64,000 bases of DNA, taken from NCBI RefSeq assembly GCF_036507355.1, contig NZ_AP027877.1, one strand, 5' to 3'. Below are positions 54,001 to 57,000 of this stretch, in pieces. The DNA comes from Escherichia coli (GTDB taxonomy: Bacteria > Pseudomonadota > Gammaproteobacteria > Enterobacterales > Enterobacteriaceae). Each line of letters opens with the position of its first letter. Position 1 is the stretch's first letter. The position numbers are program-made.

Positions 54001-57000
54001 ATTGGATGCGTACAGACAGTCAGTCGGCATTTCGTAATTCAAACGCCAGTTACAGTATGTCAAACGATTTGAAAGGCGGCATGACCAATCTATCGGGGGT
54101 TTATGGCACTCTGCTGCCGGATAATAACCTGAATTATAGCGTTCAGGTCGGTAACACCCACGGAGGTAATACATCGTCTGGCACCAGTGGTTACAGTTCT
54201 CTTAATTATCGTGGAGCTTACGGTAATACTAATGTCGGTTACAGTCGGAGTGGTGACAGCAGCCAGATTTATTACGGAATGAGTGGTGGGATTATTGCTC
54301 ATGCTGATGGTATCACCTTTGGACAGCCGCTGGGCGACACAATGGTTCTGGTTAAGGCTCCTGGCGCTGATAATGTCAAAATAGAGAACCAGACCGGAAT
54401 TCATACCGACTGGCGTGGCTATGCCATATTACCATTTGCGACAGAATATAGAGAAAATCGTGTCGCTCTTAACGCGAATTCCCTTGCAGATAATGTTGAA
54501 CTGGATGAAACCGTGGTCACTGTCATCCCAACTCACGGTGCTATTGCCAGAGCAACATTTAATGCACAAATCGGCGGGAAAGTATTAATGACGTTGAAGT
54601 ACGGTAATAAGAGCGTTCCATTCGGTGCAATTGTCACACACGGAGAGAATAAAAATGGCAGCATTGTCGCAGAAAACGGTCAGGTTTATCTGACTGGACT
54701 TCCACAGTCAGGGAAATTACAGGTTTCATGGGGCAATGATAAAAACTCAAACTGTATTGTCGAGTACAAGCTTCCGGAAGTCTCTCCTGGAACCTTACTG
54801 AACCAGCAGACAGCAATCTGTCGCTAAGGAACAAGAGATTATGAAATACAATAACGTTATTTTCCTCGGTTTATGTCTGGGGTTAACCACCTATTCTGCT
54901 TTATCCGCAGATAGCGTTATTAAAATTAGCGGGCGCGTCCTCGATTATGGCTGCACAGTCTCATCGGATTCGCTTAATTTTACCGTAGATCTCCAAAAAA
55001 ACAGTGCCAGACAATTTCCAACGACCGGTAGCACAAGTCCAGCCGTCCCTTTTCAGATTACGTTAAGTGAATGCAGCAAAGGGACAACGGGGGTTCGGGT
55101 TGCATTTAACGGTATTGAGGATGCAGAAAATAATACTCTGTTGAAACTGGATGAGGGAAGCAATACGGCCTCCGGTTTAGGTATAGAAATACTGGACGGA
55201 AATATGCGTCCGGTGAAACTGAATGACCTTCATGCCGGGATGCAGTGGATCCCACTGGTACCAGAACAGAACAATATTTTGCCTTACTCCGCTCGTCTGA
55301 AGTCAACTCAGAAGTCCGTCAATCCGGGACTGGTGAGGGCTTCGGCAACCTTTACCCTTGAATTTCAATAATCAGAGTCAGATATGAAAAGACTTCACAA
55401 GAGGTTCCTGTTAGCTACGTTTTGCGCGTTATTCACAGCAACTCTCCAGGCCGCCGATGTCACTATCACTGTTAATGGTCGGGTAGTCGCTAAACCCTGC
55501 ACTATTCAAACCAAAGAAGCTAACGTTAATCTCGGGGATCTTTATACGCGCAATCTGCAACAACCTGGTTCTGCATCTAGCTGGCACAATATTACTTTGT
55601 CATTAACCGATTGTCCGGCTGAAACAAGTGCAGTGACGGCAATCGTGACAGGTTCAACTGACAATACGGGTTATTACAAAAATGAAGGTACTGCCGAAAA
55701 TATTCAGATAGAGCTTAGGGATGACCAGGATGCGACGTTAAAAAATGGCGATAGCAAAACGGTTATTGTTGATGAGATCACTCGTAATGCACAGTTTCCA
55801 CTTAAGGCAAGAGCTATCACGGTGAATGGAAACGCAAGCCAGGGAACGATCGAGGCGCTAATCAATGTGATCTACACCTGGCAATAACGTCGATTCGATT
55901 TTCTTAGCCTTCTTTTTAAATCAATTTTTTAACCTTAGGATATATCATGGGTAAAACAATCAGTATAAAGGTCCTGTTCGGTATTTATCTTCTATTAATG
56001 GCAGGCAAAGTTTTTGCCTTCAGTTGTAATGTCGATGGCGGGTCAAGTATTGGAGCAGGTACAACCTCTGTTTATGTTAATCTCGACCCTGTAATACAAC
56101 CGGGACAGAATCTGGTTGTAGACTTGTCTCAGCATATAAGTTGCTGGAATGATTACGGCGGCTGGTACGACACTGATCATATAAACCTGGTACAAGGCTC
56201 AGCTTTCGCAGGCTCCCTACAGTCATATAAAGGATCGCTGTACTGGAATAGTGTGACCTACCCCTTCCCGTTGACGACAAATACCAACGTATTGGATATT
56301 GGTGATAAGACACCGATGCCATTACCGTTAAAACTCTATATTACCCCAGTCGGGGCGGCCGGTGGAGTTGTCATAAAAGCCGGGGAAGTTATTGCCCGTA
56401 TTCATATGTATAAAATTGCCACGTTAGGAAGCGGAAATCCGCGTAATTTTACGTGGAATATTATTTCAAATAACAGTGTTGTTATGCCAACAGGCGGCTG
56501 CACTGTTGATAGTCGTAATGTCACCGTGAATCTCCCGGACTTTCCTGGAAGCGCAGAAATCCCCCTTGGCGTATATTGCTCAAGTGAACAAAAGCTCTCA
56601 TTTTATCTTTCGGGTGCCACCACTGACAGTGCCCGACAAGTGTTTGCTAACACAGCACCAGATGCAACAAAAGCATCGGGAGTGGGTGTCTCTCTGATGC
56701 GTAATGGAAAAATACTGGCTACGGGAGAAAATGCTTCCCTGGGGACAGTAAATAAAAGCAAAGTACCTCTGGGTTTAAGCGCAACCTATGGACAAACAGG
56801 AAACAAAGTTTCAGCCGGAACCGTCCAGTCAGTCATTGGTGTCACTTTTATCTATGAATAATTGTGATTTTGACATTGGTCTATGCGCTCCATTCACGAA
56901 AATTGCGCGGATAATTATTTTGTGAAGGCTATTATCCTACACCTGTAAGAAAATCCGCGCACAATTGAAGCCAGAGTCTTATTTTTTATATTAAAAAATA

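Follow-up and report, generated by a model that had tools for sequence, protein, structure and literature searches.

An EvgA box upstream of ydeP in Escherichia coli: sequence context, natural alleles and promoter architecture

Positions 56934-56951 of the window, by which we mean the whole stretch of 64 kb that was analysed, are the already published EvgA binding site of ydeP; the assignment is correct but ordinary, and there is nothing new about the site itself. It is very probable, judging from the sequence, that these 18 bp serve as the primary, high-affinity EvgA operator from which an EvgA dimer would activate the AT-rich, H-NS-bound ydeP promoter from about -74. EvgA is a response regulator of the NarL/FixJ family, and ydeP is among the genes that exponentially growing cells need to survive pH 2.5. 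Through the box ydeP would be under the direct command of the EvgS acid sensor, and the presence of the site indicates that the strain of the window retains this wiring. Slightly beyond the textbook picture, the box is polymorphic at its two least-constrained places and the allele in the window is nearer to the consensus than that of K-12. In addition, the fixed architecture downstream of the box in six EvgA promoters gives rise to a hypothesis for EvgA activation from -74.5.

The box and its locus

The window carries the ydeQ-ydeP-safA-ydeO locus of E. coli/Shigella. Matches to the region were found at the ydeQ-ydeP locus in >5,300 complete E. coli genomes. The best of these are only ~98.9% identical to it over 11 kb, so the source belongs to an E. 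coli/Shigella lineage without close representatives in that set. Its equivalent in MG1655 is ydeN-ydeO-safA-ydeP-ydeQ in inverted orientation. In K-12 evgAS is located ~0.9 Mb from ydeP and so falls outside any 64-kb window around ydeP. The ydeP open reading frame scored 1831.7 bits against the NCBIfam YdeP equivalog model (cut-off 1473), and the 253-codon open reading frame at 59994 meets the YdeO equivalog model of the same collection. The main features are as follows.

Ends at 56861: ydeQ, fimbrial gene
56934..56951, no strand assigned: EvgA box of the ydeP promoter, ATCCTACA-CC-TGTAAGAA, full 18 bp ATCCTACACCTGTAAGAA; distal half-site 56934-56941, spacer 56942-56943, proximal half-site 56944-56951
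57195..59474, + strand: coding sequence of the regulated gene ydeP, 759 aa (ORF list, NCBIfam equivalog and RefSeq annotation of matching genomes)
59593..59610, no strand assigned: second EvgA box, TGCCTACA-GC-TGTAAGAA, in the safA-ydeO promoter, 111 bp ahead of the ATG of safA
59722..60755, + strand: safA (59722-59919) and ydeO (59994-60755), the neighbouring EvgA-activated operon (ORFs and K-12 annotation)

The ydeP box sits between ydeQ and ydeP, in an intergenic region of 333 bp, with 243 bp separating it from the ydeP ATG. It departs at a single position from the 18-bp EvgA consensus TTCYTACA-NN-TGTARGAA (TTCYTACANNTGTARGAA). The ydeP EvgA box of K-12, at 1586730-1586747 of that genome, occupies the same locus and the same position, with the same 243 bp between box and ATG. 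The initial annotation had described an inverted repeat TCCTACA-cc-TGTAAGAA at 56935-56952. That string is present, at 56935-56951, but the range was off by one base: it reads TCCTACACCTGTAAGAAA, with a surplus A at its end, and the 18-bp box starts one base earlier. The second box, that of safA(b1500)-ydeO, also has one mismatch to the consensus and is identical in K-12. Its half-site cores are those of ydeP, and TCCGC-N-CA...TGAAGC...AGTCYTATTT follows both boxes; the two differ in their distance to the start codon, which is 111 bp at safA-ydeO (a short leader) as against 243 bp at ydeP. The safA-ydeO operon is EvgA-regulated and is additionally repressed by PhoP and YdeO (bioRxiv 10.64898/2026.05.06.723403).

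The consensus match and the EvgA regulon of K-12

Sites with at most one mismatch to the EvgA consensus are expected 0.003 times per 64 kb (analytic estimate and 300 first-order Markov simulations). Two were observed in the window, and they lie in the upstream regions of its two EvgA-controlled units, ydeP and safA-ydeO. The earlier statement that the repeat fits the EvgA consensus is thus borne out. As a bare inverted repeat the box is weak: its half-sites are symmetric at 6/8 positions, it was missed by a repeat search seeded with 6 bases, and by our own calculation 6-of-8 palindromes occur by chance hundreds of times per 64 kb. Since the palindrome alone is not above chance, the inverted repeat was not used as evidence, and the case was built on the consensus match instead. 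It should be noted here that the consensus was taken from the literature and not derived blind, and that a scan of the K-12 regulon serves as its independent validation. Full-text literature searches, one for the EvgA box and one for its consensus string, returned no match, and a ChIP-based literature search found no genome-wide EvgA binding data.

Four MG1655 regions were scanned with the consensus, with the following outcome.

Upstream of frc/yfdW: 0 mismatches
Upstream of yfdX: 1 mismatch; another site here has 3
Upstream of yegR: 1 mismatch
Upstream of safA: 1 mismatch
Upstream of ydeP: 2 mismatches
emrK/evgA intergenic region: 2 mismatches
Inside mdtE: an additional site with 2 mismatches
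hdeD-gadE intergenic region: no site at <=4 mismatches

Seven sites with at most two mismatches in 45 kb of K-12 compare with ~0.04 expected when the simulation of the window is scaled. The consensus is considered to be validated because the operons it picks out are the EvgA-induced operons of the literature. An 18-bp inverted repeat was reportedly found by motif search by Masuda & Church 2003 (Mol Microbiol 48:699), with EvgA gel shifts on the repeat, and in the same work mutation of the repeat is said to have led to loss of EvgA-dependent induction of ydeP and b1500-ydeO. Itou et al. 2009 (Biosci Biotechnol Biochem 73:870) are said to have analysed the ydeP EvgA box further. Occupancy of exactly these 18 bp by EvgA at ydeP is taken from what these two papers reportedly found, and mutational dependence from the earlier of them.

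Published work places the site in a wider regulon. EvgA binds to inverted repeats upstream of yfdX and yfdWUVE (PMC3720670), and all directly regulated genes have an EvgA site (PMC4283999). Direct EvgA regulation of ydeP has been reported (PMC8174306), and the EvgA dependence of ydeP is documented in PMC11210196, PMC8174306 and PMC4283999. When EvgA activity goes up, the YdeP, YdeO, EmrKY and Frc proteins rise together (bioRxiv 10.64898/2026.05.06.723403). The consensus match, the regulon sites of K-12 and the literature (PMC8174306, PMC4283999, PMC3720670) all support the proposal of the initial annotation that ydeP is under direct EvgAS control.

Conservation and natural alleles of the box

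The ydeQ-ydeP intergenic region is 98% identical to that of MG1655; six positions differ, and one of them is within the box. The K-12 box AGCCTACACCTGTAAGAA begins AGCC and has two mismatches to the consensus, as against ATCC and one mismatch in the window, 17/18 bases being identical. The distal half-site of the window is identical to that of the emrK site. Alleles were counted as exact 57-mers centred on the box in 5,426 complete genomes.

Window allele, ATCC, spacer CC: 632 genomes (~12%)
K-12 allele, AGCC, spacer CC: 1,745 genomes (34% of complete E. coli genomes)
O157:H7 allele, ATCC, spacer CT: 1,379 genomes
A further allele, ATCC, spacer TC: 198 genomes

These four common alleles amount to 3,954 exact 57-mers. 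In the sampled box alleles, changes are limited to the 2-bp spacer and to G or T at box position 2, and the cores CCTACA and TGTAAGAA are constant. In strain PSS-15 a natural IS2 insertion splits the box.

A divergent Escherichia genome (L010), the YdeP of which is 96% identical, was compared with the window segment by segment.

EvgA box: 17/18 (94%)
Box to the predicted transcription start (57017, see below): 83%
5' leader: 76%
Intergenic DNA upstream of the box: 60%

By this comparison the box and the segment from box to start are selectively conserved relative to the flanking non-coding DNA. No site with <=3 mismatches was present within 1.5 kb of the ydeP homologues of Edwardsiella (where YdeP shows 85% amino acid identity), Yersinia rohdei, Raoultella, Tatumella and Burkholderiaceae. 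With no box near these homologues outside Escherichia, cross-genus footprinting was uninformative. The EvgA box appears to be limited to Escherichia, and its absence near these homologues fits the distribution of EvgAS, which is confined to E. coli/Shigella with homologues in Bordetella and Klebsiella only (PMC8174306).

At the level of sequence, 56934-56951 has every property expected of an EvgA box, namely a consensus match, an EvgA-induced gene downstream, a motif shared across the regulon and selective conservation. Other identities for the palindrome have to be weighed against this. A chance resemblance to the consensus, with no function, could draw on the incomplete symmetry of the repeat and on the abundance of short palindromes in AT-rich intergenic DNA. 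Against it are the excess of observed over expected sites, both at EvgA targets, and the core half-site bases, which are invariant over thousands of genomes and leave changes only at degenerate positions. The retention of 17/18 bases in L010, where neighbouring DNA is 60% identical, argues in the same direction, and chance is effectively refuted, with a negligible probability left to it. It is also conceivable, but very unlikely, that the palindrome is the target of another regulator of the NarL/LuxR family, such as RcsB, GadE or the RcsB-GadE heterodimer, and that EvgA control is indirect or acts via another site. The half-sites TCCTA and TAAGA do resemble those of RcsB-type boxes, although the order of half-sites in an RcsB box is opposite to that in the ydeP box. 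An RcsB-type box laid over the proximal half-site (TAAGA-N3-TCCGC) was considered and rejected for its wrong spacing relative to the RcsB consensus. ydeP does belong to an acid network influenced by H-NS, RcsB and GadE (PMC2984483). However, the arrangement and spacing TTCYTACA-N2-TGTARGAA recur specifically in promoters of the EvgA regulon, the hdeD-gadE intergenic region is without a site at <=4 mismatches, and direct regulation of ydeP by EvgA is given in the literature (PMC8174306).

Promoter geometry and secondary elements

Six EvgA-box promoters were aligned ungapped, anchored on the box, and it was found that the boxes of the regulon and the promoter elements downstream of them align in a common register. 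The elements relevant to ydeP and safA are listed below.

57001..57009, + strand: predicted extended -10 of ydeP, TG-t-TAATTT, read from the sequence (TGcTAATTT in L010)
57017, + strand: predicted ydeP transcription start, an A, 7 nt after the predicted -10 and 178 nt before the ATG
57017..57194, + strand: ydeP 5' leader, AT-rich, predicted to be structured
59660-59668: safA extended -10, TG-t-TATATT

The extended -10 elements of ydeP and safA stand equally far from their boxes, at +50 to +58. The -10-like hexamers of emrK, frc and yfdX fall within 1-2 bp of that offset, and that of yegR lies ~4-5 bp further on (by eye). The predicted start at 57017 is also where the "ydeP 5' leader" RNA of PMC11210196 begins (-178); that RNA spans -178 to +10, and no CsrA binding to it was seen (PMC11210196). 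We infer a ydeP start at 57017, which would centre the box at about -74.5, as well as the mode of activation proposed below; direct EvgA regulation and H-NS binding are taken from the literature. The promoter is without a good -35 element, the GC content downstream of the box is 27-33%, and a ydeP promoter fragment is bound preferentially by H-NS (PMC2984483). Folding of 57017-57210 gave a minimum free energy of -40.7 kcal/mol (z = -3.46 versus shuffles). An RNA element at the ydeP leader was dropped from consideration because an Rfam scan of 56800-57300, leader included, gave no match.

A different geometry around an equally real EvgA box would use TTGAAG (56965-56970) and TATATT (56987-56992), with a start near 57000 and the box centre near -57. 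The box would then come closer to a classical -61.5-type site next to the -35, and secondary EvgA contacts would be unneeded. TTGAAG-16-TATATT, with 9/12 matches, is the only sigma-70-like pair found by a consensus scan of 56800-57300, and TTGAAG of ydeP and CTGAAG of safA stand at the same offset after their boxes. Yet shuffles of the AT-rich region would be expected to contain 2.4 pairs of this type, more than the one found here, and none of emrK, yegR, frc and yfdX shares TTGAAG. The leader RNA of PMC11210196 begins at -178, that is, at 57017. Moreover, no -10-like hexamer follows CTGAAG of safA at the matching spacing, and what the two promoters have in common is the extended -10 at +50 to +58. 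Because safA is without the corresponding -10, the TTGAAG/TATATT promoter is kept as a minor rival only, and both its start and the promoter-proximal position it implies for the box are improbable.

With the start at 57017, the following sequence of events is proposed. In mild acid, EvgS would phosphorylate EvgA, and a dimer of EvgA~P would bind the two inverted 8-bp half-sites of the ydeP box. Placed ~74 bp upstream of the start, EvgA could switch on an otherwise silent ydeP promoter that has an extended -10 and no recognisable -35, by recruitment of RNA polymerase and/or by relief of H-NS silencing. It could be possible that further EvgA protomers, bound weakly at 56954-56961 and 56976-56983, form a bridge to the -35 region, like BvgA in Bordetella. 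Both of these elements are hypothetical.

56954..56961, + strand: candidate weak half-site-like element TCCGCGCA, holding the CA at +9/+10 (56960-56961) that is invariant in the six promoters
56976..56983, + strand: candidate weak half-site-like element GTCTTATT, where TC at +26/+27 (56977-56978) and T at +31 are invariant

Across the six promoters, five columns are invariant within 66 bp of the box towards the gene (CA +9/+10, TC +26/+27, T +31), where random offsets yield 0.2; the 25 bp compared on the other side of the box contain none. When paralogous pairs were collapsed to four lineages, seven invariant columns were found as against 2.2 expected (P = 0.008). A half-site weight matrix was built from 14 half-sites, and its best registers were +25 and +3, both oriented like the distal half-site and lying 42 and 20 bp, respectively, from its start. 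Register +25 (GTCTTATT, GTCCTATT, ATCCTATT and others) exceeds the 99th percentile of the null and register +3 the 95th. These figures, with P about 0.01, come from six promoters of which two pairs look paralogous, and the registers were picked after the scan. The element at 56976..56983 would lie at about -41 to -34 from the predicted start, and it is conserved in L010.

In the BvgA-activated promoters fhaB and ptx of Bordetella a high-affinity inverted repeat with TTTCCTA-like half-sites is located far upstream of a poor -35. Extra BvgA dimers bind weak sites between this strong upstream repeat and the -35, and this binding of several dimers has been shown to be cooperative. The BvgAS homologue in E. 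coli is EvgAS (PMC8174306). A tentative idea, which we regard as possible but on balance doubtful, is that EvgA promoters share phased weak half-sites (invariant CA; TCYTA core) along which EvgA~P would oligomerise to about -35 as BvgA does, and that G or T at position 2 of the box (G in K-12; T in the window and in O157:H7) may tune the acid-induction threshold of ydeP between lineages. The likeness to BvgA promoters is that the weaker half-site-like elements of ydeP recur every ~20-22 bp towards the -35. The two systems differ in that binding of several EvgA dimers at ydeP is suggested by the DNA sequence only, and in that the EvgA half-site (TTCYTACA) is longer.

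Natural variation of the ydeP EvgA box

The EvgA box upstream of ydeP is disrupted by a mobile element in one natural isolate. In E. coli PSS-15 (L006, NZ_AP027709.1) an IS2 element lies directly after ATCCTACA, at position about 335, which corresponds to 56941/56942 of the window. The insertion falls where the distal half-site meets the spacer; it breaks the box there and separates it from ydeP. Judged from its sequence, PSS-15 is a natural knockout of the ydeP EvgA operator. The box is also polymorphic among E. coli strains, at box position 2 (window 56935) and in the spacer (56942-56943). 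Exact 57-mer matches in complete genomes were counted for each allele: AGCC/CC, the K-12 allele, was found 1,745 times, ATCC/CT of O157:H7 1,379 times, ATCC/CC, carried by the window, 632 times and ATCC/TC 198 times. T at box position 2 is nearer to the EvgA consensus.

EvgA-box promoters and their shared sequence

A second EvgA box was located in the neighbouring promoter, with the following features in the window.

59593-59610: second EvgA box, TGCCTACAGCTGTAAGAA, upstream of safA-ydeO
59660-59668: extended -10 of the safA promoter

The spacing between box and extended -10 is the same in the safA-ydeO and ydeP promoters, and the flanking sequence TCCGC.CA...TGAAGC...AGTCYTATTT is common to both. 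They appear to be duplicate copies of a single module. Window 56952-57016 was compared with the matching parts of L002 and L003, and in the six EvgA-box promoters (ydeP, safA, emrK, yegR, frc and yfdX) the invariant bases, counted after the box, are CA at +9/+10, TC at +26/+27 and T at +31. All six likewise carry a weak half-site-like element at each of +3 and +25. Other elements are shared by pairs: TTTAAACACTA.GAGAG around the putative start by ydeP and yegR, and CTCTCTGATT at +23 to +32 by frc and yfdX. In MG1655 no match to the EvgA consensus was found in the hdeD-gadE intergenic region; the mdtE coding region contains one with 2 mismatches, TTCTTACGCATGAAAGAA (5887-5904 of the MG1655 region L004, MG1655 3659886-3659903).

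Leader and 3' end of ydeP

Strong structure is predicted for the 178-nt ydeP leader (window 57017-57194; z = -3.46), which matched no Rfam family, with two predicted local hairpins.

57044-57075: perfect hairpin of 11 bp
57085-57102: hairpin of 7 bp

A long-range helix is also predicted, in which GAUGAUGC pairs with GCAUCAUC, and both partners are kept in the divergent Escherichia lineage L010. In Shigella ydeP is reportedly repressed by RyhB, which makes the leader a possible sRNA target. Just past the ydeP stop codon, a 10-bp perfect stem, CTTCTGCTGT...ACAGCAGAAG, at 59490-59516 is followed by no T-run and could form a ydeP 3' hairpin between the gene and the safA promoter.

YdeP outside E. 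coli and a possible mobile element

Homologues in Edwardsiella anguillarum, E. piscicida and E. hoshinae (L011, L012 and L014) are 84-85% identical to E. coli YdeP, and those of Yersinia (67%) and Raoultella (56%) are both well below this; yet no EvgA box is present upstream of the three Edwardsiella genes. This combination hints that the gene moved horizontally without its regulation. A 13-kb contig labelled as a Candidatus Nanosynbacter sp. (Saccharibacteria) MAG (L009, JARKOR010000108.1) encodes a YdeP 100% identical to that of the window, and the EvgA boxes of E. coli ydeP and safA are present on it as well. The contig almost certainly comes from E. coli and was placed in that MAG by mis-binning. 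In a 12-kb query starting at window 50000, the first ~720 bases (50000-50720) fell outside the alignments to the ydeP locus, and the query as a whole matched a median of 10 sites in each genome, many being located on plasmids. This points to a mobile, IS-like element lying at or close to 50000-50720.
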